Assembly: GCA_034520665.1 (NCBI GenBank)
Contig: JAXHNJ010000002.1
Coordinates: forward strand, 544,660-608,659
DNA: 64,000 nucleotides
Direction: 5' to 3'
Source of the DNA: Patescibacteria group bacterium
GTDB taxonomy: Bacteria; Patescibacteriota; Patescibacteriia; JAXHNJ01
In this document: positions 28,461 through 43,114 of the stretch, in pieces
How positions within the stretch are numbered: the first letter of the stretch is position 1
How the letters are laid out: every line of letters starts with the position of its first letter
Position numbers and translations under genes: made by a program
Notes under the pieces: generated by a model
Database searches by the model: none
What the model was told of the DNA's origin: nothing
What the model saw: only the letters and a program-made list of their open reading frames with translations

Positions 28461-29678
28461 ATGAATAAAAAACAAACTTGGTTAGTAATATTTGTAATTA
28501 TTATTACCTTGCTCAGTCTTTTTTTGAGATTTTATAATTTAGGCTTTCCCGAAAAAATTACATCGGATGAACATTATTTTGTAAATTTTGGTCGCGCCTA
28601 TGTTAGTCAGGAATTTTATCATGATGTGCATCCACCTTTGGGCAAGTTTTTTATTGCTCTGGGCATAAAAATATTTGGCGATAATGCCTTAGGCTGGCGT
28701 TTTTTTACGGCCTTATTTGGCAGTCTTTTGGTACCCTTAGGTTATTTATTGGCCTGGAAAATGTTTAATAATAAATTTATAGCCGTTTCTTTTTCTCTGT
28801 TTATACTTTTTGACGGTCTGTTTTTTGTCCAGTCACGCTTAGCCCGGCTAGACACTATTTATTTATTTTTCTTATTTCTAGCTTTCTATTTTTTCTTTTC
28901 TTTTTTGAAAAGCCATAAAGACAAAGAAATTTATTTAATTTTGTCGGGTTTATTTTTGGGCTTTAGCATAAGTACCAAATGGGTGGCTTTGGCCGGCGGT
29001 TTGTCTTTTTTAATAATCTGGCTTATTAAAAAGAAAGAAATAAAAAAATCAATAATTTGGTTTTTATTTTACCTGGTTTTTATTCCTTTGGCTATTTATT
29101 TTTTAATTTGGCAGATTCATTACGGATTAATAAGTACCCAGCCTATTACTTTTTATGAAAATTTTAAGATATTAACTTATCACCAGGGAATTAAAGAAGT
29201 ACATTCTTTAGGTTCGCCTTTTTGGTCCTGGCCTTTAATGATTTATCCTTTCTCATATTTTATAGAAAAAAGCGAGCAAGTAATAAAATATATTACGGAT
29301 TTACCTAATCCATTAATCTGGTGGCCGGCTCTAGTCGGGTTTTTATATGGCTTTTTTAAATTTAGACTTAAAGACAAAAAATTTAATATTATTTTAATAA
29401 TTTTTGCCAGTCATTTTCTACCCTATCTTTTTATCTCTCGCTCGCTTTTTCTTTATCATTTTATTCTGGCGGCTCCTTTTTTATGGCTGGGATTTTTATA
29501 TTTTTTAAGTAAGTTTTGGTACCAATCAAAAAAAAGCAAAATTATTATTTTAGGTTATTTTGCTTTAGTTATTATTTCTTTTGTTTTTTTCTATCCGGTT
29601 TTAATCGGCCAGCCATTATCCACGAGCAGTTTTAATTTAAGATGGTGGCTAATTAGCTGGTTTCCTTTGGCGGTCTAA
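28461..29678 (+). CDS. GT39/PMT-family dolichyl-phosphate-mannose protein mannosyltransferase-like glycosyltransferase
   Basis: N-terminal DEHYF loop motif, HPPLGK and a multi-TM GT-C fold. The likely start is MNKKQ at 28461, inside the longer ORF that opens at 28335. Confidence 0.8.
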   Translation: MNKKQTWLVIFVIIITLLSLFLRFYNLGFPEKITSDEHYFVNFGRAYVSQEFYHDVHPPLGKFFIALGIKIFGDNALGWRFFTALFGSLLVPLGYLLAWKMFNNKFIAVSFSLFILFDGLFFVQSRLARLDTIYLFFLFLAFYFFFSFLKSHKDKEIYLILSGLFLGFSISTKWVALAGGLSFLIIWLIKKKEIKKSIIWFLFYLVFIPLAIYFLIWQIHYGLISTQPITFYENFKILTYHQGIKEVHSLGSPFWSWPLMIYPFSYFIEKSEQVIKYITDLPNPLIWWPALVGFLYGFFKFRLKDKKFNIILIIFASHFLPYLFISRSLFLYHFILAAPFLWLGFLYFLSKFWYQSKKSKIIILGYFALVIISFVFFYPVLIGQPLSTSSFNLRWWLISWFPLAV

Positions 29679-30798
29679 TTTTTTTTACATTAAGGAAATA
29701 AGCGGCTAAATAAGTAGCGATCGGTATGGCTAAAATCAGGCCAATACTGCCGGTTAGGGTTCTGACAATTTCGGTGGCAATAACTTCATGGTTAATAACA
29801 TCACCAAAACTTAAAAAAGGCGGTTCATTGACTGTAAATAATAAAAGCAGCGGCAAGGAGGCACCGGCGTAAGCTAAAAATAGAGTATTAACCATAGAGC
29901 CCATATGCGATTTTCCCACTCGAAAGGCTCGTTTAAATATTTCGCGCCTGCTTAAATTAGAATTAGCCTTCTTAATTTCCTGACAGGTAGCTATTTGGCT
30001 GATAACTACATCATCGAGAACACCCAAGGCGCCAATAATAATAGCGGCCAAAAGAAGTCCTTTTAGATTAATAAAACTGCGGCCGCTGGCAATTAAAAAG
30101 AGTGTTTCTTCCTGGGCTAGACCGGTTAGTTTAGCTAGATCAGTAAATATTGAGGAAATAAAAGCGGTTATAATTAAAGCAATAATTATACTTAAAACAG
30201 CCAGATGAGATTTTTTATTAAAGCCTTCAGTTATATAGATAATACAAAACAAAATCATTATAGCGCCGATTATTGAAATAAGAATTGGGCTGACTCCATT
30301 CAAAATCTGAGGAATAATAAATTTCATAATTACTAAAAAACTGATAACCAGAGCAATTAAAGCCCTTAAACCTTTTAATCGGCCGATAACAATAATTACC
30401 AAAGCAAAGAGCGCAGCTAGCCAATAAAGGCTGCCCTGACGGACATAATCAGTAATATAAAATTTGTCATCACCTTCACTATCAGTGGTTTTAGTCACCA
30501 AAACTTTGTCGCCAATCTGATACTCTTTTTTGCTCAAAACCTGAATATCAGAAATACCGTAAAAAATTATTTCTTTATCCTGCCACTCATCCTCTAATCC
30601 TTTCAGTTTAATATTTTGCTGACGGTATTGATGGCCGTGTTCGTCTTCCTTGACTTGCTCCTCAATAATTTCAATTACCCGGGCTTTAAAAACTTCATCA
30701 GTTTCTGGCTTTTGATTGTTTTCTAAATTTTCTTGGGCTAGGGCCTGAAAAGGAAATAAACAAAGTAAGACGGCTATAATTAATATTATTTTTTTCAT
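29653..30798 (-). CDS. YibE/F-family membrane protein
   Basis: Signal peptide plus periplasmic domain, then multi-TM YibE/F-like segments (GRSFINLKGLLLAAIIIGALGVLDDVVISQ). Confidence 0.75.
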   Translation of the reverse strand: MKKIILIIAVLLCLFPFQALAQENLENNQKPETDEVFKARVIEIIEEQVKEDEHGHQYRQQNIKLKGLEDEWQDKEIIFYGISDIQVLSKKEYQIGDKVLVTKTTDSEGDDKFYITDYVRQGSLYWLAALFALVIIVIGRLKGLRALIALVISFLVIMKFIIPQILNGVSPILISIIGAIMILFCIIYITEGFNKKSHLAVLSIIIALIITAFISSIFTDLAKLTGLAQEETLFLIASGRSFINLKGLLLAAIIIGALGVLDDVVISQIATCQEIKKANSNLSRREIFKRAFRVGKSHMGSMVNTLFLAYAGASLPLLLLFTVNEPPFLSFGDVINHEVIATEIVRTLTGSIGLILAIPIATYLAAYFLNVKKIRPPKETS

Positions 30799-31016
30799 AT
30801 CTTATCAATTTTGATTAATTTATCGTCATTTAAATAGTAATTCCGATAGCTGGAGTATTTGTATTCTTCAGGGTTTTTGGTCAGTTTAGTATAAATTGGA
30901 TTATTATGAATATATTTTAGTTTTTACTCTAATTTCTTCTCGGAATAGATATTAAAGTCGTAAAAATCATTCATCCAGACTGAATATTTTCTCTTCTTTC
31001 TAAAACTAGTCGGGTA

Positions 31017-31113
31017 GGCCGAATCCTCAGATTCGGCCGAGAGACTAGCCCGATCTGAGGATCGGGCCGTAATACCCAGTGTAGGAGAGTGGCGCGGATC
31101 TCCTGATCCGCGC
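31017..31113. repeat. Array of three perfect GC-rich hairpins with GATC-centred stems
   Basis: GGCCGAATC-CTCA-GATTCGGCC (31017-31038). GCCCGATC-TGAG-GATCGGGC (31048-31067). GCGCGGATC-TCCT-GATCCGCGC (31092-31113). Confidence 0.6.
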
Positions 31114-31168
31114 TTCTCGGGTAATTTTAAGGGCTTCCTTGGCAGTTTGTTTTATACTAGGTAGTTTC

Positions 31169-31354
31169 CAATGGCTTTTTTATTCCAAACCCACCACCAA
31201 AACCTTACTAGCTGCTATAACCATAACCAATTAGCAAAAAAGAGGGTTTTGGGCCGAGCCGCTAGTTTGGTTATTAGGCTGAGTCAATGGTTTTTTATTC
31301 CAAACCCACCACCAAAACCTTACTAGCTGCTATAACCATAACCAATTAGCAAAA
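31169..31354. repeat. Two copies of a 70-nt direct repeat separated by a 46-nt spacer
   Basis: CAATGG(C)TTTTTTATTCCAAACCCACCACCAAAACCTTACTAGCTGCTATAACCATAACCAATTAGCAAAA at 31169-31239 and 31285-31354, with one indel between copies. Confidence 0.7.
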
Positions 31355-31558
31355 CATAAATCGCCGGATAAATCCGGCGCCTTCACCTCTTCATCCGCGT
31401 AGCTGGAGATTTATCTCCAGATGTCAGAATTAAATGAGCGTGGTTGGGCCTGATTATAATTTGAAAAAAATTATCGTAAACAAATAAATTTAATTATAAA
31501 CCTTACTGGTTACAAAGTAAGTCTGGTTTTCTTTATTGATAGTTTTAAGGGGCATTAG

Positions 31559-32737
31559 TTAAGCAAACATCAACCACTCCGGCTTGATTAGAAGCAATAT
31601 ACCGAGAATGAAAATAATAATTCCACCGATTAATTCAGAAAAACGGGAATATTTGCCGGTCAATCCGGTTACTTTGACTGTTAACATAGCCACAGTAAAG
31701 ATAATCATATCATCAAGCATGAAAATTATAGTGTAGCCGGCTATGTAAAGATAATACTGCCATTTAGGTAAATTACTTAAGGCCAATATTTGAGTATAAA
31801 TGGCTGGCAGGCCAACTGAACAGGCTAACTCAATCAAATTAACTACAAAAGCCAAAACTACTATACCACCTAGGGCGTAAATAAAATTTCTTGATTCAAC
31901 AATATTATTTATTTTATCCATCACTTTTTGGCGCCGTTCGCCTTTAACTACTTTGCATTCCTCGGATCTTTTTTGAATAAATTCTTTTAAGTAATAAAAA
32001 CCAACCCCTAAAGCCAGAACGCCGATAATTATCTGGACAATACGGACATAGCCAATAAAAAGAAACAGATTAAGCCAGGCCGTCATAAAGAGAAAATAAA
32101 CCAAAGCGCTGGCCGCGATAAAGGTCAGGCCGATAGCCCACATGTTTTTCCGGTTTTTCATACCTAAAAGGGCGCTGATTAAAAAAACTAAAACCCACAT
32201 AGCACAGGGGTTAAAACCGTCCACCGCTCCGATGATTAAAGTTAAAACCGGCAGGGAATACTTGGTTAAATCAACTTGACCAAAAAAAGGCAGGTTGTAT
32301 TTTTTTTCAATATGCAGAGCCTGATTAGTATTTTCGTTTTGGTTATTATTAACAGCAGTATTTGTCTGGTTGTTAATATTAGTATTTTCCAGTTCCTCTA
32401 GCTTATAATCAATAAAATTAATAATCGGAGTGTCACCAACAGCATATTGGCTGCCCCAGATCAGCATGGGTACTCCCCGTTCATTATTGGGGATATCGGC
32501 CTGTTCGCAGAATTGGTTAAAGCGGGCCGCATTTTGGCTATTTAAATAAACCTCTCTTTTTTCTATATTAACCTTATCTTCAAGATTGACTTTTTCCATA
32601 TATTCTTCGGCTTTATCACAATGAGGACAGGTGTAACCGTAATAAAAAATAACCTTTTCTTTATCCTGTGCCTGAGCCACAAAGGGTAAAGTTAATAAGA
32701 TTACTAATAAACTAAAAAGTAATATTTTTTTATTCAT
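31559..32737 (-). CDS. Thioredoxin-fold (CxxC) domain fused to a CcdA/DsbD-like transmembrane disulfide transporter
   Basis: Signal peptide, YGYTCPHC thioredoxin motif, and C-terminal TM helices with conserved Cys (FNPCAMW, ELACSVG). Confidence 0.75.
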   Translation of the reverse strand: MNKKILLFSLLVILLTLPFVAQAQDKEKVIFYYGYTCPHCDKAEEYMEKVNLEDKVNIEKREVYLNSQNAARFNQFCEQADIPNNERGVPMLIWGSQYAVGDTPIINFIDYKLEELENTNINNQTNTAVNNNQNENTNQALHIEKKYNLPFFGQVDLTKYSLPVLTLIIGAVDGFNPCAMWVLVFLISALLGMKNRKNMWAIGLTFIAASALVYFLFMTAWLNLFLFIGYVRIVQIIIGVLALGVGFYYLKEFIQKRSEECKVVKGERRQKVMDKINNIVESRNFIYALGGIVVLAFVVNLIELACSVGLPAIYTQILALSNLPKWQYYLYIAGYTIIFMLDDMIIFTVAMLTVKVTGLTGKYSRFSELIGGIIIFILGILLLIKPEWLMFA

Positions 32738-33005
32738 GGATAGAAATAGCCTTTCCTTTAATTATGGCTTCAGAGATTTTTTTATAAGCCGAAGATAAAA
32801 TTCTCTGAAAAGTACTTTGAGAAGTATTCATTTTTTTAGCCGCTTTTTTCTGATCAAACTCTTTAACATTTTTTAGTCTTAGAGCCTCGGCTTCTTCATG
32901 AGTTAATTCTACTACTTTCAAAAAACGCATAGGCACGCCTTGCGGTTTAAAATAAGTAACTTTTGGGTTAAATCTAATTTTTCTATAAAGTTTTGGACGG
33001 GGCAT
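32730..33005 (-). CDS. DUF134 (UPF0251) family putative DNA-binding protein
   Basis: MPRPKLYRKIRFNPKVTYFKP...LTHEEAEALRLKNVKEF...QSTFQRIL matches the DUF134 pattern. Confidence 0.8.
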   Translation of the reverse strand: MPRPKLYRKIRFNPKVTYFKPQGVPMRFLKVVELTHEEAEALRLKNVKEFDQKKAAKKMNTSQSTFQRILSSAYKKISEAIIKGKAISIHE

Positions 33006-33094
33006 AATGGTTTTTTATTTATAACAAAAAAAGAAAGTTCTGTCTAGAATATAGATAAAGGGCCTTTCAGAAGAAAATGAAAGACCCTTTTTTG

Positions 33095-33385
33095 TTATTT
33101 ATTTTTTTTAGACTGGAGAACCTTTAGTTCTTCTTCTACGGCTTTGAGTTCTTCCCGAAGAGCTTCTTTTTCTTCATTTAAGGCTCTTTTTTCGTCTGAT
33201 TTGGTCCAGTTTTGGCTTGGAACGTAACCTTGGTTTCTAAAACCAAAGCCTTGACCCATACCACGACCACGGCCAAATCCTTGGCCAAAGCCTCGGCGGC
33301 TACAACCAGCGCCGCAAGGGCCTGTGCCCCAGCCAGCGCCCGGACCACCGCCCCAAACTGGACCTCTTCCGTCATATCCTGACAT
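33095..33385 (-). CDS. DUF5320-like Gly-rich coiled-coil protein
   Basis: Gly/Trp-rich N-terminus (GPVWGGGPGAGWGTGPCGAGC, GFGRGRGMGQGFGF) plus a C-terminal coiled coil. This is a typical partner of DUF134. Confidence 0.65.
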   Translation of the reverse strand: MSGYDGRGPVWGGGPGAGWGTGPCGAGCSRRGFGQGFGRGRGMGQGFGFRNQGYVPSQNWTKSDEKRALNEEKEALREELKAVEEELKVLQSKKNK

Positions 33386-33482
33386 AAATTTATCCTTTCT
33401 AATTAATTTATTATTTAGGTTAATTACTTAGGTATAAATTGCTGTGGATAAATATTATGAATATTTACCCAATATTAGCTAA

Positions 33483-34025
33483 ATGAATTTCTTGACTTAT
33501 AATGAATATATACCCATAATTAATAATAACTTATTTAAATTATTTGTCAAGAGCTTTTATTTAGCAATTATTTTCTATTTAGAGTATTATACATATATGA
33601 CTGATAATAAAATAAAAAAAGCTATCCAGTCATTAGTCAATATGACTAAAATGGTTACGCCTATTATTATAGGGGTGGTTTTATTAGTAGGTTTAGTTAA
33701 TAAGGGTATTCCTAAATCTTTTTTTGCCAGTATTTTTACTGGTCTGGCTCCCTTGGATGCTTTTATTGGTGCAATTATTGGCAGTGTGGCCGCTGGTAAT
33801 CCGATTACCAGTTATATTATTGGCCATGAATTATTAAACAATAGTGTAGCCCTAGTGGCTGTTGTCGCCTTTATTATAGCCTGGGTCACGGTCGGCCTAG
33901 TTCAGTTTCCGGCTGAAAGTCTAATGCTCGGTAAAAAATTTGCTTTTTGGCGCAACTTAACTAGCTTTATTACCGCAATTATTATTTCATTATTAAGTGT
34001 CGGTACTCTATGGCTAATCCTATAA
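33483..34025 (+). CDS. Predicted permease, first of a two-gene pair (DUF318/ArsP-like)
   Basis: Multi-TM ORF. It overlaps the next gene by 16 nt. Confidence 0.55.
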   Translation: MNFLTYNEYIPIINNNLFKLFVKSFYLAIIFYLEYYTYMTDNKIKKAIQSLVNMTKMVTPIIIGVVLLVGLVNKGIPKSFFASIFTGLAPLDAFIGAIIGSVAAGNPITSYIIGHELLNNSVALVAVVAFIIAWVTVGLVQFPAESLMLGKKFAFWRNLTSFITAIIISLLSVGTLWLIL

Positions 34026-34588
34026 AAAAAATTACTAATCGTATTGGCGCTAACTGGTTTTTTCTGATTATTGTTTTAATTATTTATTTAATAGTAACTA
34101 TTTTCAGTCCTTCTTTGGGTTACCGATCTTTTTTAGGAGCTTTCAATATTTTTGTAGAAATAATACCGGTAATTATTTTAGTTTTCTTTTTAGTTTTTGT
34201 GTTTAATCTTTTTATTTCGCCGGAAAAAGTGGTACAGTATTTAGGAAATTCCGCTGGTTTTAAAGGCTGGTTTTTATCGATTGTTTTTGGTATTCTTTCC
34301 TCGGGACCGATTTATATGTGGTATCCACTTTTAAAAGATTTAAAAAACAAGGGCATGCGACCAGCTTTTATCACGGCTTTTCTTTACAACCGCGCTATTA
34401 AAATACCGCTTCTTTCAATGATGGTTTTTTATTTGGGTTGGGCTTTGGTTATAATTTTAAATTTTTACATGATAATATTTTCCGTGATCAACGGATATAT
34501 AGTCGAAAAAATAATTTCCTCCAGTGGCGCCATGCCAAAGGACGGGCAAGGATTCACCTCTGGGGAAAAAAGAAAGGAAAAAATATGA
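34010..34588 (+). CDS. Predicted permease, second of the pair
   Basis: Multi-TM ORF. Its stop overlaps the NifX-like gene start as ATGA. Confidence 0.55.
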   Translation: MANPIKKITNRIGANWFFLIIVLIIYLIVTIFSPSLGYRSFLGAFNIFVEIIPVIILVFFLVFVFNLFISPEKVVQYLGNSAGFKGWFLSIVFGILSSGPIYMWYPLLKDLKNKGMRPAFITAFLYNRAIKIPLLSMMVFYLGWALVIILNFYMIIFSVINGYIVEKIISSSGAMPKDGQGFTSGEKRKEKI

Positions 34589-34890
34589 AAATTGCTATTG
34601 CTACCTTAGAAAAAAATCCTGACTCGGAAATTTCCACCTCGGCCGGGCGCGCTCCTTTTTATCTTATTTTTAATGAAAAAGGAGAAGTTTTGGAGACTTG
34701 GCAAAATGTCTTTGCCAAGGGCGGTGGCGGGGCCGGATTTGCGGTGACCGATGCTATGAAGGAAAAAGGAGTGGCTGTAATTATCGCCGGCCAGTTTGGT
34801 CAGAATATGATCGGGGCCATGGACTCGGCTGGTATCAGGTATATGGAAAAAAAGGGTCAGGCTAAGGAATCAGCTCAGAAAATTGAATAA
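34585..34890 (+). CDS. NifX/NifB-like dinitrogenase FeMo-cofactor-binding domain protein
   Basis: MKIAIATLEKNPDSEISTSAGRAPFYLIF...VAVIIAGQFGQNMIGAMDSAGI matches the Nitro_FeMo-Co fold. The start at MKIAI lies inside the longer ORF that opens at 34438. Confidence 0.7.
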   Translation: MKIAIATLEKNPDSEISTSAGRAPFYLIFNEKGEVLETWQNVFAKGGGGAGFAVTDAMKEKGVAVIIAGQFGQNMIGAMDSAGIRYMEKKGQAKESAQKIE

Positions 34891-34898
34891 ATTTGTCA

Positions 34899-35522
34899 TT
34901 ATTTTTTAAGTATAAGATGATAATTTAAAAATCGACGATTTTTAAATGGAGTTATGTTTTCTTTAGTTACTTTAAAAGAAACCGGTAGATATTTTTTGAG
35001 CTCACCTTTTTGAAAATAAAGAAACCATCTTTTAGTGCCTGGCTTTTCATTATATAATTCCCAGCCATTTTTATGGCCTTCTCTTAAAGCGACAAAGAGC
35101 GGCGATTTTGGCTTTAGAATTACTGCCATTTTTTTTAGTACTTTTTTTATTTTTTCTTTTTTATCAAAATGAATTAAAGAAGTATGGCACCAAAGGCCGT
35201 CAAAGGTATTGTTTCTAAATTCTAAATTTTCCAGATCCATAACTTTAGCTTCTAGTCCTTTTTTCCGGCAGAGCTTGACCATGCCTGGACTAATATCAAT
35301 GGCCGAAGGATGATAACCTTTTTCTTTAAAATAAAGCGTATGAGTGCCAGCACCACAACCAGCGTCTAAAATTTTGCCGGCTGGTTTTATTTGCGAGAGA
35401 AATTTATCAGCTTCTGGTTTAACAATTTTATTAAAATATTGATCATATCCCTGGCCTAATTCTTTAGCTATTTGGGAATAGGTCTGGCTGGTACAAGTCT
35501 TTTTGTTATTTTTTTTAGACAT
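34899..35522 (-). CDS. Class I SAM-dependent methyltransferase
   Basis: ILDAGCGAGTHT glycine-rich SAM-binding motif. Confidence 0.85.
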   Translation of the reverse strand: MSKKNNKKTCTSQTYSQIAKELGQGYDQYFNKIVKPEADKFLSQIKPAGKILDAGCGAGTHTLYFKEKGYHPSAIDISPGMVKLCRKKGLEAKVMDLENLEFRNNTFDGLWCHTSLIHFDKKEKIKKVLKKMAVILKPKSPLFVALREGHKNGWELYNEKPGTKRWFLYFQKGELKKYLPVSFKVTKENITPFKNRRFLNYHLILKK

Positions 35523-35653
35523 AAAATAGAATTGAATTATTTTTATTATAGCAAAAAAAATTTATTAAAGAAATTTTCTTAATTAATAATCGCAGGATAA
35601 ATCCGGCGCCGGTAGAATCTTAAAATAATATCACTCTCTGGCGCAACATTCAT

Positions 35654-36505
35654 GTGGCGAGCAGTTTGACTAAGGCTTATTATTCAGTAATAATTAAAAT
35701 AATGTTTATCCATAATTTAAATCCTAATTTATTAAAAATCGGCTCTGTACAAATCCGCTGGTATGGTCTGCTTTTTGTTTTGGGGCTTTTATTTTATATT
35801 TTCTTTACCCGTTGGGTTTTTAAAAAAGCAAATCAGTCAGTCAAAAAACTGGAAGATCTTTTTATTTATTTATTTTTTGGCTTTTTAATTGGGGCTCGTT
35901 TAGGACATGTTTTTTTCTTTCAATGGCCGTATTACTCAAAAAATCCGGGTGATATTATTAAAATATGGCAAGGTGGCCTAAACAGTCATGGAGCCATGAT
36001 TGGATTATTAGTAGCTTATATTATTTTTTATTTTATAGAAAAAAGAAAAAATCCAGATTTTAATTTTTACCAGTATTCAGATTTATTAGTCATTGGTATC
36101 CCCATAGTAGCCATGATGGTGAGAATAGGTAATTTTATTAATGCCGAAGTTTTAGGCCGGCTAACAAATTCTTCCTGGGGAGTAGTTTACCAATCTTTAG
36201 GGGAAAATATAGCTCGCCATCCGGTTCAAATCTATGAAGCAATAGCCGCTTTAATTATATTTTTTATTTTACTGGGGGTTTTTCTAAACAAAAAAACCAA
36301 GCCTTACTTTATGACCTTTTTATTTTTGCTTTTGTATTTTGGCTCTCGGTTTATCTTGGAATTTTTTAAAAAATACCAGATTTTAGAAAAATCTGGCACC
36401 TGGACTTTGGGTTTAACCATGGGGCAAGCTCTTTCAGTGATACCGATTTTAGTGACTTTGATTTATTTTATTTATTATTATCCAAGGATAAAATTTAAAG
36501 AATAA
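35654..36505 (+). CDS. lgt: Prolipoprotein diacylglyceryl transferase
   Basis: IRWYGLLFVLGLL, GARLGHVFFF and the Lgt signature region. The true start may be MFIHNL at about 35702. Confidence 0.88.
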   Translation: MASSLTKAYYSVIIKIMFIHNLNPNLLKIGSVQIRWYGLLFVLGLLFYIFFTRWVFKKANQSVKKLEDLFIYLFFGFLIGARLGHVFFFQWPYYSKNPGDIIKIWQGGLNSHGAMIGLLVAYIIFYFIEKRKNPDFNFYQYSDLLVIGIPIVAMMVRIGNFINAEVLGRLTNSSWGVVYQSLGENIARHPVQIYEAIAALIIFFILLGVFLNKKTKPYFMTFLFLLLYFGSRFILEFFKKYQILEKSGTWTLGLTMGQALSVIPILVTLIYFIYYYPRIKFKE

Positions 36506-37136: not shown

Positions 37137-38447
37137 TTACAAAACTGATCCAGCCGCTTTAATAATCGGATAAGCAATCGGCGAAGCGGTTAAAAGTGGA
37201 TGAGTACCTACTTGTAAATATTTCAAATCCTGGGCGGTCATCTTTTTTTGGATGGCCAGGGCTATAATATTAATGATTTCTCCGCATGTTTTGGGTCCCA
37301 TCACTTCCCCGCCAATTAATACATTTTTTTGATTAAAAATTAATTTACAGTTTATTTTTTGACTATTTGGTAAACTACCCGGATGATGGTCAAAAGTTTC
37401 AAACGGCCCGGTTTTAAATTTAATATTTTGTTTTTGACAAATATTTTCATTAAAGCCAGCTGAAGCCAGGGTCAAATCAGCAATTTTAGTCGAGCTGACT
37501 GAAATAATACCTTGGTTTTCTTTATTTTTTTTGTAAAGATTAATCGCGGCTATCCGGGCTTCCAGACAGGCAATAGAAGCTAGCATAGCCGGGCTTTCTT
37601 TTTGGGTGATAAAGTCAATTTTTTGAGCACAATCACCAACCGCGAAAATGTCTTTATCCGAAGTCTGGCCGTACTTATTAATTTTAATAGAATTATTTGA
37701 AGAAATTTCTAAACCAGCTTTTTTAGCTAAAGTAATTTCTGGACTGGCTCCAACTGATAAAATAAGAAGATCATTTTTTATTTCCTGGCCATTATTGTAT
37801 ATAACTTTGCCTTTTTCTATTTTTTCAACCTTGGCACCAGTAATAATATTAACTTTTTTTTCTTTTAAGGCCTCTTGAGCTTTTTTAGCCATTTCCTGAT
37901 CAAAAGCCAGGCCCAGACAAACATCCATGGCTTCGATAACTGTAATATTTTTACCTTCTTTTTTAGTCAGGTCATCAGCAATTTCCAGACCAATAAAACC
38001 GCCGCCAATAATCACTACTTCTTTAGCTTTTAACATAGCCTGACGCAGTTTTTCTAAGTAGGGGCAATCTTTTTTAATTAACCAGTGTTTATTTTCATCA
38101 AGACCCTTAATAGGTAGTGATTTAGGATTCGAGCCAGTGGCTAAAATTAATTTTTCATATTCCATTTCAAAATTAGGGGTGCTTATTTTTTTATTTTCTT
38201 TGTTAATTTGAATAACTTCATCAATAATTAATTCGATATTGTTATCAGTCAATTTTTCGTCCGGAATAATGTTTTTATCAATCGAGTCCAGGCTGTTAAA
38301 GGTATAAGGAATACCGCAGGGAATCGGACTCTTTTCTGTTTTACGGATGAGAGTAATTTTTTGTTTTGGATAATTTTTTCGCGTTTCCAAAGCGGCGGTA
38401 ATACCGCCCGGGCCGCCGCCGATAATTATTATCTCTGATTTTTTCAT
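37137..38447 (-). CDS. FAD-dependent pyridine nucleotide-disulfide oxidoreductase (CoA-disulfide reductase / NADH oxidase family)
   Basis: IIIGGGPGG FAD-binding motif, VVIIGGGFIGLE NAD-binding motif and a C-terminal dimerisation region. Confidence 0.85.
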   Translation of the reverse strand: MKKSEIIIIGGGPGGITAALETRKNYPKQKITLIRKTEKSPIPCGIPYTFNSLDSIDKNIIPDEKLTDNNIELIIDEVIQINKENKKISTPNFEMEYEKLILATGSNPKSLPIKGLDENKHWLIKKDCPYLEKLRQAMLKAKEVVIIGGGFIGLEIADDLTKKEGKNITVIEAMDVCLGLAFDQEMAKKAQEALKEKKVNIITGAKVEKIEKGKVIYNNGQEIKNDLLILSVGASPEITLAKKAGLEISSNNSIKINKYGQTSDKDIFAVGDCAQKIDFITQKESPAMLASIACLEARIAAINLYKKNKENQGIISVSSTKIADLTLASAGFNENICQKQNIKFKTGPFETFDHHPGSLPNSQKINCKLIFNQKNVLIGGEVMGPKTCGEIINIIALAIQKKMTAQDLKYLQVGTHPLLTASPIAYPIIKAAGSVL

Positions 38448-39455: not shown

Positions 39456-40199
39456 TTATTCAGGAAAAAACATAGTTAGTCCCAGATAGGTAAATATGCT
39501 TAAAATTATGCCAATAATAAAGAGATATATTTTTTTGTATTTTAAAGCCATAGGTAGTAATTCGTGGATAGAAATAAATATCATTGCTCCGGCAGCAAAA
39601 GCCATAAAAAGAGGATTTAGAGCTGGGGCTATTGAAACAGCCAAAAGTCCGAAAACAGCCCCGGCTGGTTCAGCTAAGGCAGAAAGAATAGCCAGATTAA
39701 TTAATGCTTTTCTTTTTTTGGCTATGACCAGTGGTACAGCCATAGCAAATTCTTCTGGTATATTATGAATAGCAATTGAGATGGCAATCAAAATTCCTAA
39801 ACGCGGAGCGTAAATATAAGAATTAGCCATAGCAAAGCCTTCAGGAAAATCGTGAAGAATTAGTCCTAGAGCTACTAAATAAGCAGTTTTAATCTGCCAG
39901 TGTAATTGTCCTTTTTCTTTGATATAATGAATGTGAGGAATAATGAAATTTAAAGAATAAACAAAAAGAATCCCTAATATTAAAGCTATTAGGGCAGAAA
40001 AAGTATTAGATGCTCCAATTGACTCTGGTATAAGCTCAAAAAAAGAAATAATCATCATTATACCTGCGGAAAAGCCAATACCTGTGGCGATCAAATTAGA
40101 TTTTTTTTTAAAATAAAAAGCAAGAAGCAAACCAATTGCGGTAGTTAAAGCCGAAAGAAGAGATAGTAAAATTACACTGATAATAACTAAAGTTGACAT
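39456..40199 (-). CDS. ZIP-family zinc/metal transporter (ZupT-like)
   Basis: HDFPEGFAMA and HNIPEEFAMAVPL metal-binding TM motifs. Confidence 0.88.
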   Translation of the reverse strand: MSTLVIISVILLSLLSALTTAIGLLLAFYFKKKSNLIATGIGFSAGIMMIISFFELIPESIGASNTFSALIALILGILFVYSLNFIIPHIHYIKEKGQLHWQIKTAYLVALGLILHDFPEGFAMANSYIYAPRLGILIAISIAIHNIPEEFAMAVPLVIAKKRKALINLAILSALAEPAGAVFGLLAVSIAPALNPLFMAFAAGAMIFISIHELLPMALKYKKIYLFIIGIILSIFTYLGLTMFFPE

Positions 40200-40397
40200 A
40201 TTAGAAATTTGGATACAAAGATTGATTTAATCTTAAATTTTTTTAAATTTTTCTTTTTCTCTTTCTTTATTTATTAAAAAAGAATAACTTTGTAGAAAAA
40301 TTTCGCCTTAATATATTTTTTTAATAATAAAAAAAACATAAAGTCAAATTCTAAATACAAGAAGTAATAAATTAATTTTTGATTTAAAACTTTTAGA

Positions 40398-42446
40398 TTA
40401 AGTAAATCCCAATAACTTTCCTCCCTGATAAATAAAAAATGATACTATCCAGGCTAAAGCCATACTGTAAGCGACCACAAAGAGAGCCCATTTGAAGGAA
40501 TGAGTTTCTTTTTTTATAACCGCGATAGTAGCTAGGCAGGGCGTATAAATGAGGGAAAAAACCATAAAAGACAAAGCGCTTAAAGCAGTAAAATTAGATT
40601 TTAAAACAACTGTCAGAGATTCTTCAGCTACTCCATAAAGAGTGCCTAAGGTACTAACCACTACTTCTTTAGCAGCTGTGCCGAAAAATAAAGCCACTGT
40701 TTCTTGCCATCCGCCAAAGCCAAGCGGTTTAAATAGAGGAGAAACAACCGACCCAATTTTTCCGATAATAGAATTCTGGGCCGCGTATTCAACGCCCCAG
40801 GGCATACTGGCCAAAAGCCAAATAACAACTGAGAAGATTAAGATAATACTACCGGCTCTTTTAATAAATTCCCAGCATTTTTCCCAGACATGAATCAAAA
40901 GACCTTTCAAAACCGGCCAGTGATATGAAGGCAGTTCAATCACAAAAGGTTCAGACAAACCGCCAAAAAATAATTTATTAAAAATTTTACCGATTACAAT
41001 AGCTAAAATTACTCCCAAAATATAAAGACCAAAAATAACCCATCCCTGATAAGCGGAAAAAAAAGCGGCTGTAAAAAGGATATAAATAGGCAGCCGGCCG
41101 CTGCAGGACATGAGCGGATTAATTAAAATAGTCAAAAGTCGGTCTTTTTTTGAACGCAAGGTCCGAGTAGCCATAATAGCCGGCACATTACAGCCAAAGC
41201 CTAAAATTAAAGGAATAAATGATTTGCCGTGTAAACCAATACGGTGCATAAAACGATCCATAACAAAGGCCACCCGGGCTAGATAACCGGTATCTTCCAT
41301 GAGGCCAATAAAAAGAAAGAGTATAAAAATATTGGGTAAAAAAGAAAGCACAGTGCCAGTGCCGCCGATAAGACCATTATTAATCAGCGAATTAATCCAA
41401 GTCGCCGCTTCAATTAAAGCCAATTTTTGACTGATAATCTCACCCAAATGGTCAAATAAGTTATTGATAATTTCTACCAAAGGAGCAGCCAGAGTAAAAG
41501 TGAGTTGAAACATCAAAAGCATAATTAAGAAAAATATGATAAGACCCCAGAATTTATCAGTCAAAACGCGGTCAATTTTATCAGAAGATGATTTGGCCTC
41601 TTTGTTTTTTTGATCAATTACTTCTTGGCCAACTCCGCGGATAAAACTATAACGTACTTCTGACAAAAGCGAACTGATGGATTGGTCAAATATTTTTTTT
41701 AGACGCCGGCGACTCTTTTTAATTACTAGTGATAATTTACTAAAGTATTTTTTGTTTTTTAGCTTTTTTATAAAATGTTCATCTTTTTCCAAAAGCCTTA
41801 AAGCCACCCAGTTAATATTGCAAGCTGGGAAGGAAATCTCATTATTGATTAAAATATTTTTTATTTTATTTGTTTCTTGGTTAACTTCATCTCCATAGGT
41901 TAACTTAATCTTACATTCTTTTTTAATTTTATGGGCTTGACTAAAAATTAAATCAAGAAGATTACCCACCTTTTCTTTTTTAGGGGCTTCAATTTTAACT
42001 ATTGATACTCCTAATAATTCGGCCAGTTTTTTTTCATTTACAAAAAAATCGTGCTTTTCCGCCAAGGTAGACCTATTTAAAGCAATAATCAGAGGAGCTC
42101 CTAATTCGATTAATTGGACTGATAAATACAGATTTCTTTCTAAATTTTCGGTGTCAATTATTTGAACAATAATATCAGGCTGATCATGCATTATAAAATC
42201 CCGGCTGACTATTTCTTCTTCAGTATAGGCTGATAAACCATAAACTCCTGGTAAATCGACTACTTTGATTTTATGGTTTTTATAAATAAAAAAACCTTCT
42301 TTTTTTTCGACGGTTTTGCCGGGCCAGTTACCGACGTGCTGATGGGAACCGGTTAAGGTATTAAAAAGAGTGGATTTACCGACATTGGGATTGCCGATTA
42401 GGCCAATAGTAATATGTTCTTCAATTTTTTTAAACTTTTTTAACAT
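40398..42446 (-). CDS. feoB: Ferrous iron transporter FeoB
   Basis: G-domain [16 protein letters not shown] and the Gate/TM domains. The ORF opens at 42479. The start at MLKK (42446) gives a 17-nt overlap with feoA. Confidence 0.93.
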
Positions 42447-42702
42447 AGGTTCTTTTGGCTTGATGCTGGCCAAGGGCAATTTTTGAATTAAACACTTTTA
42501 AAATTACCGGACCAAAACGGTCATTTTTTATAATTTTGGCTTTAGCTCCTTCATAAAGACCAAGTTCGCCCAGCCTTTGTCTAAACCCGGGGCCGCCAGG
42601 CATGCCGGTTATTTCTATATCAGTGCCAGCCGGATAATCAGCCAGTGATTTTCCTTGGAGGGGTATATTTTTTCTTTTTCTAAATCTTTTTCGTCTAAAC
42701 AT
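42430..42702 (-). CDS. feoA: FeoA ferrous iron transport protein
   Basis: SH3-like FeoA pattern ([32 protein letters not shown]...GPVILKV). Confidence 0.8.
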
Positions 42703-42709
42703 TTTTTAT

Positions 42710-43114
42710 TTATTTTGGTATTTTTTTGCCGTGCGGGCATTTTTTTGGATTTTTTAAAATTTTTTCTAATTTTTTAATCGATAAATCAGAAAAAGCATGC
42801 TCCAAATGATGTGCTTCTTGGTGAATATTTTCATTTTTCAGACCCAAAGATTTTTTTAAGAAAACTTCGATTAAACGATGACGACGAGTGATTTCTTTAG
42901 CTTTGACTAAACCTTTTTTAGTTAAATTTACGGTGCCGTAAGGCTTTTTATTAATATATTTTTTTTGCTGTAGCTTATTTAACATAGCTGAAACTGAAGG
43001 CTTGGATATATTTAAATAATCAGCTATTTTTTTAGAATGAATATTTTTATCTTTTTCCCAGAGAATATAAAGGGTGCGTAAATAATCTTCCTGGCTTTGT
43101 TTTTGTCTTTTCAT
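42710..43114 (-). CDS. DtxR/MntR-family metal-dependent transcriptional repressor
   Basis: N-terminal wHTH (IADYLNISKPSVSAMLNKL) and a dimerisation/metal-binding helix (RHRLIEVFL...HQEAHHLEH). Confidence 0.85.
   Translation of the reverse strand: MKRQKQSQEDYLRTLYILWEKDKNIHSKKIADYLNISKPSVSAMLNKLQQKKYINKKPYGTVNLTKKGLVKAKEITRRHRLIEVFLKKSLGLKNENIHQEAHHLEHAFSDLSIKKLEKILKNPKKCPHGKKIPK

Follow-up and report, generated by a model that had tools for sequence, protein, structure and literature searches.

What holds together six small genes that stand back to back in the genome of a Patescibacteria bacterium (Candidate Phyla Radiation, CPR), and what might they do together? The genes lie at positions 31,559 to 34,890 of a 64,000-nucleotide stretch of contig JAXHNJ010000002.1 (hereafter the window) and form two divergent operons: a minus-strand operon of genes C (a DUF5320 protein), B (a DUF134 protein) and A (a thioredoxin-like domain joined to a membrane domain), and a plus-strand operon of genes D and E (half-size permeases) and F (a NifX-like protein). 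The original prediction, made from the sequence of the window alone, saw in them an uncharacterised redox or metal-cofactor module that might be regulated by a nearby hairpin and repeat region. Comparison with related genomes indicates that the gene cluster is a real recurrent module and not a chance juxtaposition; its function is a prediction. The 211 bp between the operons (33386–33596), a divergent promoter region with a conserved palindrome as predicted operator, probably serve as the control region. The interpretation favoured here, held with about as much conviction as doubt, is that the genes form a self-regulated metal/thiol homeostasis and stress module, in which two divergent operons have a common operator, a DUF134 repressor, and a Cys-bearing DUF5320 partner. 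DUF134 and DUF5320 appear in passing mentions only, and no functional study of either, of COG1342/COG1433, or of a Patescibacteria CcdA was found in the literature searched.

Organization and recurrence of the module

All six open reading frames (ORFs) of the original prediction are present (Table 1), with one correction: gene D starts at 33597 (142 aa) and not at 33483, since both promoters and the operator fall within the longer 5' extension, and two loci of the same layout (L093 and L030) have orthologs of 142 aa as well. Most of the predicted domains exceed their Pfam cut-offs: DUF134 (76.9 bits, cut-off 27, residues 3–89), DUF5320 (57.0 bits, cut-off 27, residues 1–88), Nitro_FeMo-Co (42.0 bits, cut-off 26.3), and, for the second permease ORF, ArsP_1; the first permease ORF, gene D, has no direct Pfam match.

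The neighbourhood of DUF134 was surveyed by scanning species-representative genomes with a profile from a 10-sequence alignment, which gave at least 586 relatives; the best 80 loci, all CPR, were used for counts. Neighbouring ORFs of these loci were scanned with hidden Markov models built from the collected sequences, and Pfam confirmed the labels of the neighbour clusters. A second set consists of 52 metagenome loci seeded with gene A. The sampled loci come from related genomes and are not independent observations, so that the values that follow are frequencies and not P values: within 3 kb of DUF134, DUF5320 occurs in 67 of the 80 loci (directly upstream on the same strand in 56 of the 74 with room for it), gene A in 21 (26 within 10 kb), YibE/F in 12, a small thioredoxin in 11, a CDF transporter in 9, a MinD/CbiA-Fer4 ATPase in 9, a NifX-like protein in 8, a ZIP transporter in 7, and an ABC-3 permease, D, and E in 5 each. 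A single-copy gene would fall within 10 kb by chance in about 2% of genomes of ~1 Mb. The genes most often chained directly after DUF134 are A (13 loci), thioredoxin (10), YibE/F (9), and ZIP (5). Seen from the other side, DUF134 is found in 19 of the 52 A-seeded loci and lies directly upstream of A in 15; in the window, as in L012 and L030, B and A overlap by 8 nt.

The exact layout of the window, F-E-D divergent from C-B-A and then YibE/F, recurs in L030 (DUF134 71% identical) and in the 88% ortholog locus L093; YibE/F also directly follows A in several A-seeded loci. Five further loci have D and E (with F in four) within the DUF134 transcription unit or divergent from it, and permuted layouts include C-B-D-E-F, B-D-E-F-Trx-A, C-D-E-F-B, and A-B-D-E. 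A more distant locus contains in one run DUF5320, two NifX genes, CDF, two MinD/Fer4 ATPases, a ferredoxin-thioredoxin-reductase-like gene, and DUF134.

Gene fusions join the same families. DUF134 has 2,454 representative relatives at E <= 1e-3, and a survey of 150 of these found C-terminal extensions of three kinds: a Nitro_FeMo-Co domain, in P0282 and ten or more other proteins; the N-terminal motif of DUF5320 with a four-Cys (Zn) ribbon after it, CxCPxCG…PH..G.PC…CPxCG, in P0254 and about nine others; and other CxxC…CxxC ribbons. The association of DUF134, DUF5320, and Nitro_FeMo-Co proteins foreseen in the original prediction is thus borne out by both neighbourhood and natural fusions, and its redox or metal theme fits the recurrent neighbours (thioredoxin, the thioredoxin–membrane fusion, ZIP, CDF, ABC-3, YibE/F, and MinD/Fer4 ATPases).

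The four-Cys ribbon, CxCPxCG-x5-H-x2-G-x-PC-x4-CPxCG (proteins P0254, P0328, P0342, and P0364), occurs in three settings: as a 70-aa stand-alone gene in a DUF5320–DUF134 operon (L013:9165-9377), at the C-terminus of some CDF metal exporters (L040:6096-7145), and after DUF134 with the DUF5320 motif. One possibility is that the three have a metal-sensing module in common.

Table 1. Features of the two divergent operons and their control region (window coordinates).
Feature	Coordinates	Strand	Description	Basis or remark
YibE/F-like membrane protein	29653..30798	-	Probable accessory member	PF07907; recurrent neighbour downstream of A
Gene A	31559..32737	-	CPHC Trx/DsbA-like and CcdA-like membrane protein, 392 aa	Last gene of C-B-A
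Gene B	32730..33005	-	DUF134 / UPF0251, 91 aa, predicted transcription regulator	PF02001
C–B hairpin	33057..33090	-	Terminator/attenuator-like hairpin, 13 bp, between DUF5320 and DUF134	Terminator scan
Gene C	33095..33385	-	DUF5320 protein, 96 aa, first gene of C-B-A	PF17253
Operator 2 (predicted)	33453..33476	-	AATATTGGGTAAATATTCATAATA, weaker copy 45 bp away in the C-B-A leader	Weight matrix, 24.4 bits
D-E-F promoter	33492..33520	+	TTGACT-17-CATAAT	Second-best promoter-like match (10/12) in 30700–35700
Operator 1 (predicted)	33498..33521	-	AATTATGGGTATATATTCATTATA, imperfect 20-bp palindrome common to both promoters	Weight matrix, 31.7 bits; 1 mismatch to consensus
C-B-A promoter	33523..33550	-	TTGACA-16-TATTAT	Best promoter-like match (11/12) in 30700–35700
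Gene D	33597..34025	+	Half-size permease, 142 aa, like C-terminal repeat of ArsP_1/YraQ	Homologs
Gene E	34010..34588	+	Half-size permease, 192 aa, like N-terminal repeat of ArsP_1/YraQ	PF03773
Gene F	34585..34890	+	NifX/MTH1175-like Nitro_FeMo-Co protein, 101 aa, presumably cytoplasmic	PF02579

The control region and the DUF134 regulator

In most loci the sequence upstream of DUF5320 consists of CTTGACA, a spacer, and TTATGGGTATATAYTCATAAT, that is, a consensus -35 box and an imperfect 20-bp palindrome containing the -10 box; the consensus of this ~20-bp palindrome is TTATGGGTATATAYTCATAA, and it overlaps the DUF5320–DUF134 promoter. GGGTATA is present in 43 of 57 upstream regions; of 560 control windows taken from these loci, 7 contain it. 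From the upstream sites a 24-nt weight matrix was derived. At a threshold of at least 20 bits it finds 66 sites in 63 of the 80 loci (L013–L092, 1.10 Mb), each just upstream of a DUF5320–DUF134 operon and none elsewhere; in an independent 0.69 Mb of A-seeded loci, 15 of the 17 matches immediately precede DUF5320 and the remaining two stand beside a DUF5320/DUF134 pair. Confinement of a motif to the operon of the regulator is the usual signature of autoregulation.

The palindrome pattern has two matches in the 64-kb window (33500–33519 and 33455–33474; 0.04 expected), both between the divergent operons; L030, with the same layout, also has two operator copies. Operator 1 takes in the spacer and -10 box of the promoter of D-E-F and adjoins the C-B-A promoter, so that one site can control both operons. 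A pattern search found no operator copies at the ZIP, FeoAB, DtxR, or YibE/F genes of the window.

DUF134 matches the Pfam family Sigma70_r4_2 below threshold, and a DUF134 profile search matches the DNA-binding domain of DeoR (7bhy) at E = 6e-7. An AlphaFold2 model (predicted local distance difference test, pLDDT, 85.8) consists of three helices and a small three-stranded sheet, and superposes on SigD4, SigR4, sigmaE4, and the operator-bound DeoR DNA-binding domain at 0.6–0.9 Å over ~50 residues; the core of DUF134, as modelled, is a sigma-70 region 4-like helix-turn-helix. From this sigma-region-4/DeoR-like fold, and from the confinement of the palindrome to the operon that encodes DUF134, we infer that DUF134 is the likely binder; the position of the palindrome over the -10 and +1 region suggests repression.

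Two known arrangements are similar, an extracytoplasmic function (ECF) sigma factor with its zinc-binding anti-sigma (ZAS) factor and the DNA-binding domain of the SorC-family regulator DeoR: the core of DUF134 can be superposed on both sigma region 4 and the DeoR domain, and a small Cys-bearing partner is co-encoded. Unlike an ECF sigma factor, DUF134 lacks region 2, and hence cannot be a sigma factor, and it has extra N- and C-terminal beta strands; unlike a ZAS anti-sigma factor, DUF5320 has no HxxxCxxC motif and no similarity to known anti-sigma factors.

The hairpin and repeat region to which the original prediction had tentatively attributed regulation (30799–31558), and which it had placed upstream, is actually downstream (3') of the minus-strand operon. 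It was rejected as a regulator of the cluster, the 88%-identical ortholog locus keeping only one short hairpin of it. Rfam E-value searches of 30750–33650 and of one related leader gave nothing credible, and a gathering-score search of the whole window returned four tRNAs only.

Duplication of the regulatory unit is seen in one Saccharibacteria locus (L069:6645-8621), which has two identical tandem copies of operator, DUF5320, and DUF134, 1.25 kb apart.

DUF5320 and the intercistronic hairpin

Gene C opens with the motif M..DG.GP..G.GP..G.G.GPCG, which has one conserved Cys, and continues through a Gly/Arg/aromatic-rich linker to a C-terminal coiled coil. In 71 aligned homologs from Patescibacteria, the motif MP..DGTGP.G.GP.TGRG.GPCG is conserved, as is a heptad-like C-terminus. 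Since DUF134 lacks Cys here, DUF5320 keeps its Cys, and fusions of DUF134 to Cys ribbons and NifX domains exist, the accessory parts are the likely sensors.

DUF5320 and DUF134 are separated by a hairpin. In most related loci it is a two-tier structure directly after the DUF5320 stop codon, followed by U-rich sequence (for example L021:2836-2898, L036:2533-2595, and L063:9898-9960). The outer stem, AAGAAGGC/GCCUUCUU (the 3' arm also given as GCCTTCTT), is invariant and the inner GC-rich stem covaries, with compensatory changes in 11 of 18 pairs among 18 sequences. The hairpin looks like a terminator or attenuator and, to judge from the sequence, would lower expression of DUF134 and A relative to DUF5320.

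A second RNA element is found in about 20 related loci, where the leader of the DUF5320–DUF134 operon opens with a short hairpin, AGAUAGU…ACUAUCU, with compensatory changes in 4 of 6 pairs (L021:2539-2575, L037:6256-6292, and L074:9608-9644; none in the window). The 3' part of its loop is a conserved octamer, AAAGGUCG, which some loci keep without the stem; AAGGTCG occurs in 20 of 57 upstream regions versus 3 of 560 control windows. Rfam has no matching family for this leader hairpin or for the intercistronic one.

The half-size permeases and the NifX-like protein

Genes D and E resemble the two halves of a single permease family, ArsP / UPF0718 (YraQ; TC 2.A.119, PF03773). Gene E passes the ArsP_1 threshold (37.4 bits, cut-off 32.3) over profile positions 12–139 only, the N-terminal half, and E-type proteins in general, as seen from Pfam matches of fusions and homologs, cover positions 2–139. 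Gene D is linked to the other half through natural NifX–D fusions, to which it is similar at ~1e-37 (phmmer); the D part of one of these, P0247, matches ArsP_1 positions 169–289, the C-terminal half, with 26.4 bits, below the cut-off. The building blocks of the ArsP family are repeat units of four transmembrane segments (TMS), and 4-TMS members occur as well (PMC7176098). D and E are predicted to be the two 4-TMS repeats of this family encoded by separate genes, and to form a native two-subunit transporter.

The "split permease" of the original prediction is accordingly better described as a pair of half-size subunits: the two-gene arrangement, with overlaps of 4 or 16 nt, is kept in five other Patescibacteria loci, and about 100 of 120 listed homologs of a joined D and E query are half-size E-type proteins of ~184 aa, the named sources being bacteria and archaea. 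The same list includes one natural D–E fusion (P0135), two E–NifX fusions, and about a dozen NifX–D fusions. A PDB sequence search with P0135 gave spurious low-complexity matches only. The order of the halves is swapped relative to the single-chain ArsP_1 profile, the C-repeat-like D coming first and the N-repeat-like E second, and P0135 keeps the swap.

D and E thus differ from ArsP/YraQ in being separate genes, with the C-repeat before the N-repeat, in lacking Cys, and in having no arsenic genes nearby; in other organisms each repeat is fused to a NifX-like domain. Fusion loci outside this lineage show the same pairing, [NifX–D][E] in L094 and [D][E–NifX] in L095, and the NifX domain is probably cytoplasmic, since the N-terminal NifX domain of the fusions has no signal peptide.

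The PDB relatives of gene F are MTH1175, TM1290, and TM1816, with matches to 1eo1 (MTH1175) at 3.8e-9 and to 1rdu at 6e-7; the C-terminal domain of MrpORP shows weak NCBIfam similarity. NifX/NafY proper have nif or nitrogenase neighbours, whereas gene F has none in the 21.7-kb contig and the window neighbourhood examined.

The thioredoxin-like membrane protein

Gene A encodes, in order, a signal-peptide-like N-terminus, an extracytoplasmic CPHC domain, an Asn-rich linker, and a membrane domain of about six transmembrane (TM) helices. The soluble domain is Trx/Grx/DsbA-like (profile versus PDB, E = 1e-6), with a weak match to the ScsC-type DsbA-like proteins of metal resistance. Five Cys are invariant in 21 diverse homologs: C37 and C40 of C37-P-H-C40, C178 in DGFNPCAMW, C261 in the central loop of the membrane domain, and C306 in ELxCSxGLP. 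In an AlphaFold model (pLDDT 70; membrane part ~60–80) C178 and C306 lie at breaks in two helices. Such a placement in a domain of about six helices is the layout of CcdA-type reductant transporters, and gene A is here called "CcdA-like in design" rather than a demonstrated member. The "thioredoxin-CcdA fusion" of the original prediction holds for the Trx-like CPHC domain; the CcdA part is a likeness only, since Pfam DsbD does not match.

Like CcdA–ResA, DsbD, and the copper-stress pair ScsB–ScsC, gene A combines an extracytoplasmic CxxC domain with a domain of about six helices, two of them broken and each of these two carrying one invariant Cys. A CcdA-type relay requires a cytoplasmic thioredoxin, and a small cytoplasmic thioredoxin gene is directly upstream of A in 19 of the 52 A-seeded loci, as would fit a relay from thioredoxin through the membrane domain to the outer CPHC. 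Gene A differs from CcdA and DsbD in having both modules fused in one chain, in its third invariant Cys, C261, in giving no Pfam DsbD or DsbD_2 match, and in its distribution: the family, with more than 5,000 full-length homolog clusters at 40–50% identity, appears essentially restricted to Patescibacteria, since the taxon names among the best 120 homologs are all but one Patescibacteria/CPR.

The linker of gene A (residues ~120-147; window 32300-32380) is of Asn/Thr/Gln-rich low complexity, NTNINNQTNTAVNNNQNENTNQ; its length is highly variable among homologs, and the model shows it as disordered (pLDDT <50).

Proposed mechanism and significance

The genes present, their synteny and fusions, the motif with its confinement to one operon, and the helix-turn-helix fold are observations; the identity of the operator's binder, the sign of regulation, the signal, and the substrate are predictions. 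In the proposed mechanism DUF134 would bind the palindrome, most likely as a dimer. In most relatives the site and the -10 box of the DUF5320–DUF134 promoter overlap; in the window it coincides with the beginning of the C-B-A transcript and with the spacer and -10 box of D-E-F, so that DUF134 would repress its own operon and the permease operon together. DUF5320, with one Cys in a Gly-rich motif and a coiled coil, would act as the sensor and modulate DUF134 when a thiol-reactive signal (a metal or oxidation) is present, in analogy to a zinc-binding anti-sigma factor controlling a sigma domain, and the C–B hairpin would probably set the DUF5320:DUF134 ratio. The membrane domain of gene A would hand electrons to its own extracytoplasmic CPHC domain, fed by the cytoplasmic thioredoxin encoded just upstream in many relatives. 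D and E would form a heterodimeric 4+4-TM permease working with the cytoplasmic F, which would retain the solute or gate its passage; the likeliest solute is a metal ion or a metal-containing anion. A metal/thiol role is suggested by the neighbours (ZIP, CDF, ABC-3, and thioredoxins) and the Cys-rich fusions.

DUF134, DUF5320, and stand-alone NifX-like proteins have a wide distribution among anaerobic bacteria and archaea, and a regulator and operator kept across many classes in tiny genomes likely control something central. A broader proposal, tentative and less likely than not, is that DUF5320 and DUF134 are an unrecognised two-protein switch with its own operator and RNA hairpin across the CPR, serving as main metal/thiol stress regulator, and that the NifX-like proteins are ligand-holding partners of a split YraQ-type permease. 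The latter, if true, would give a first defined role to the "orphan NifX" proteins of non-nitrogen-fixing organisms. Testable claims gained are a DNA site for DUF134, the DUF5320 Cys as candidate sensor, D/E/F as a transport unit, and a candidate CPR-specific extracytoplasmic reductant relay; the conserved operator and the gene fusions make the module experimentally tractable.

Several findings, added to the relatedness of the sampled loci, weigh against this interpretation. The output genes appear facultative, since A and D/E–NifX each occur without DUF134: A in about two thirds of the sampled loci (33 of the 52 A-seeded, and also L010/L011), and the D/E pair with its fused NifX domain in L094 and L095. 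The transport proteins offer no obvious metal ligands, D, E, and F having no Cys and F no His either, and the DUF134 proteins of this lineage are also without Cys. For gene A, the Pfam models DsbD (PF02683) and DsbD_2 (PF13386) give no DsbD-family match at E <= 0.01, its sole Pfam match being SfLAP (31.4 bits, below the cut-off of 35), and Foldseek with the model, of moderate quality at pLDDT 70, finds matches to the thioredoxin-like domain only and none to a solved CcdA. The palindrome could be bound by a factor other than DUF134, and part of the motif conservation may reflect promoter strength, since the motif overlaps a near-consensus sigma-70 promoter.

Alternative explanations

The alternative that survives best, possible but doubtful, is that the module handles metal–sulfur clusters as a Patescibacteria version of the orange protein (ORP) or NifX/MinD-Fer4 clusters of anaerobes, with F as an Fe-S or Mo-S carrier and D/E moving a metal or an oxoanion (e.g., molybdate or tungstate). 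F belongs to Nitro_FeMo-Co and weakly matches the MrpORP C-terminal domain; the ORP complex of Desulfovibrio vulgaris and the stand-alone proteins NifX, MTH1175, and TM1290 likewise feature a small Nitro_FeMo-Co protein, and the ORP genes, too, come from an anaerobe and are arranged in two divergent operons. MinD-like ATPases with ferredoxin inserts are part of the ORP complex and occur in relatives of the present module (PMC6345978): the DUF5320/DUF134 loci L002/L003, L034, L044, and L107 have two NifX-like genes, MinD/CbiA-Fer4 ATPases resembling Orp3/Orp4, and a ferredoxin-thioredoxin-reductase-like gene. In the ORP system Nitro_FeMo-Co domains bind metal–sulfur clusters, both Fe-S and Mo-Cu (PMC6345978), and the E–NifX fusion of L095 stands beside Fe-S assembly genes and a MoCF_biosynth (molybdenum-cofactor) gene, which together make a metal–sulfur or oxoanion substrate possible. 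The window itself differs: no MinD/Fer4 ATPase is in or next to the cluster, where the partner is a permease, and no nif-type Pfam families are found in the annotated 21.7-kb contig or the window neighbourhood examined. Regulation is apparently by DUF134/DUF5320 from sigma-70-like promoters, whereas ORP operons use sigma-54 and an enhancer-binding regulator (PMC6345978). That F lacks Cys and His is a weak argument, as orange protein also binds its cluster non-covalently.

It is improbable, by comparison with the self-regulated module, that the functional unit is the DUF5320–DUF134 pair alone, and that A, D-E-F, and YibE/F are common genes landing nearby in tiny, gene-dense genomes. The loci that have A without DUF134 agree with this, as do the occurrence of the operator upstream of DUF5320 only and the 27 of 71 DUF134 loci in which no co-directional gene lies directly downstream. 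Chance landing accounts poorly, on the other hand, for the frequency of A within 10 kb of DUF134, for the 8-nt overlap of B and A, and for the DUF134–NifX and DUF134–DUF5320 fusions; moreover, in DUF134-seeded Patescibacteria loci D-E-F is always within the operator-controlled unit or divergent from it.

There is a slim chance that DUF134 is instead an activator or sigma-like factor, or that the palindrome is the site of another regulator, such as the DtxR-family protein encoded 9 kb away (42710–43114) or a Fur/PerR-like one. The fold of DUF134 is indeed that of sigma region 4, the -35-binding domain, and the motif is AT-rich with ATTAT/ATAAT arms that by inspection look faintly Fur/PerR-like; but the promoter already has a consensus TTGACA, a palindrome over the -10 or +1 is in the classic position for a repressor, and the strict linkage of the motif to the DUF134 operon points to autoregulation. 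The site of a global metal regulator should also stand upstream of ZIP, Feo, or CDF genes, where the motif is never seen in the 1.8 Mb of flanking sequence.

Metalloid detoxification, with D/E as an ArsP-type organoarsenical or tellurite efflux system, a S-adenosylmethionine methyltransferase (34899–35522) as partner, and DUF134 as an ArsR-like regulator, has little to commend it, and arsenical efflux is unlikely: E passes the ArsP_1 gathering score, and the methyltransferase passes Pfam TehB (30.3 versus 20.4 bits), weakly resembles ArsM-type models, and adjoins the module in L093 as well, but it is encoded on the other strand, an unrelated gene takes its place in the otherwise equal L030, D and E have no Cys where the characterised Campylobacter ArsP binds trivalent organoarsenicals through a conserved membrane Cys pair, the annotated neighbourhood has no ArsR, ArsC, or ArsM genes, and the recurrent neighbours are divalent-cation transporters and not ars genes. 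The methyltransferase was dropped as a module member, being absent from L030.

Neighbouring features

At a distance of 4.5 kb from the module is a second metal cluster, which consists of a ZIP transporter, FeoB, FeoA, and a DtxR-family repressor (39456-43114, minus strand), with a pyridine-nucleotide disulfide oxidoreductase (37137–38447) between the two; none of these genes has a DUF134-type operator.

The YibE/F-like gene downstream of A passes Pfam PF07907 at 251 bits. The gap between it and A is 760 nt long (30799–31558) and holds GC-rich hairpins (31017-31068, 31087-31118, 31362-31379, and 31400-31421), of which that at 31379–31362 is terminator-like, and a perfect 64-nt direct repeat (31176–31239 and 31291–31354, 115 nt apart). 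The equivalent gap of L093 is 429 nt and is conserved only in the hairpin block around CTGGAGATAAATCTCCAG; candidate origins of the gap are a duplication, a small mobile element, or a small RNA.

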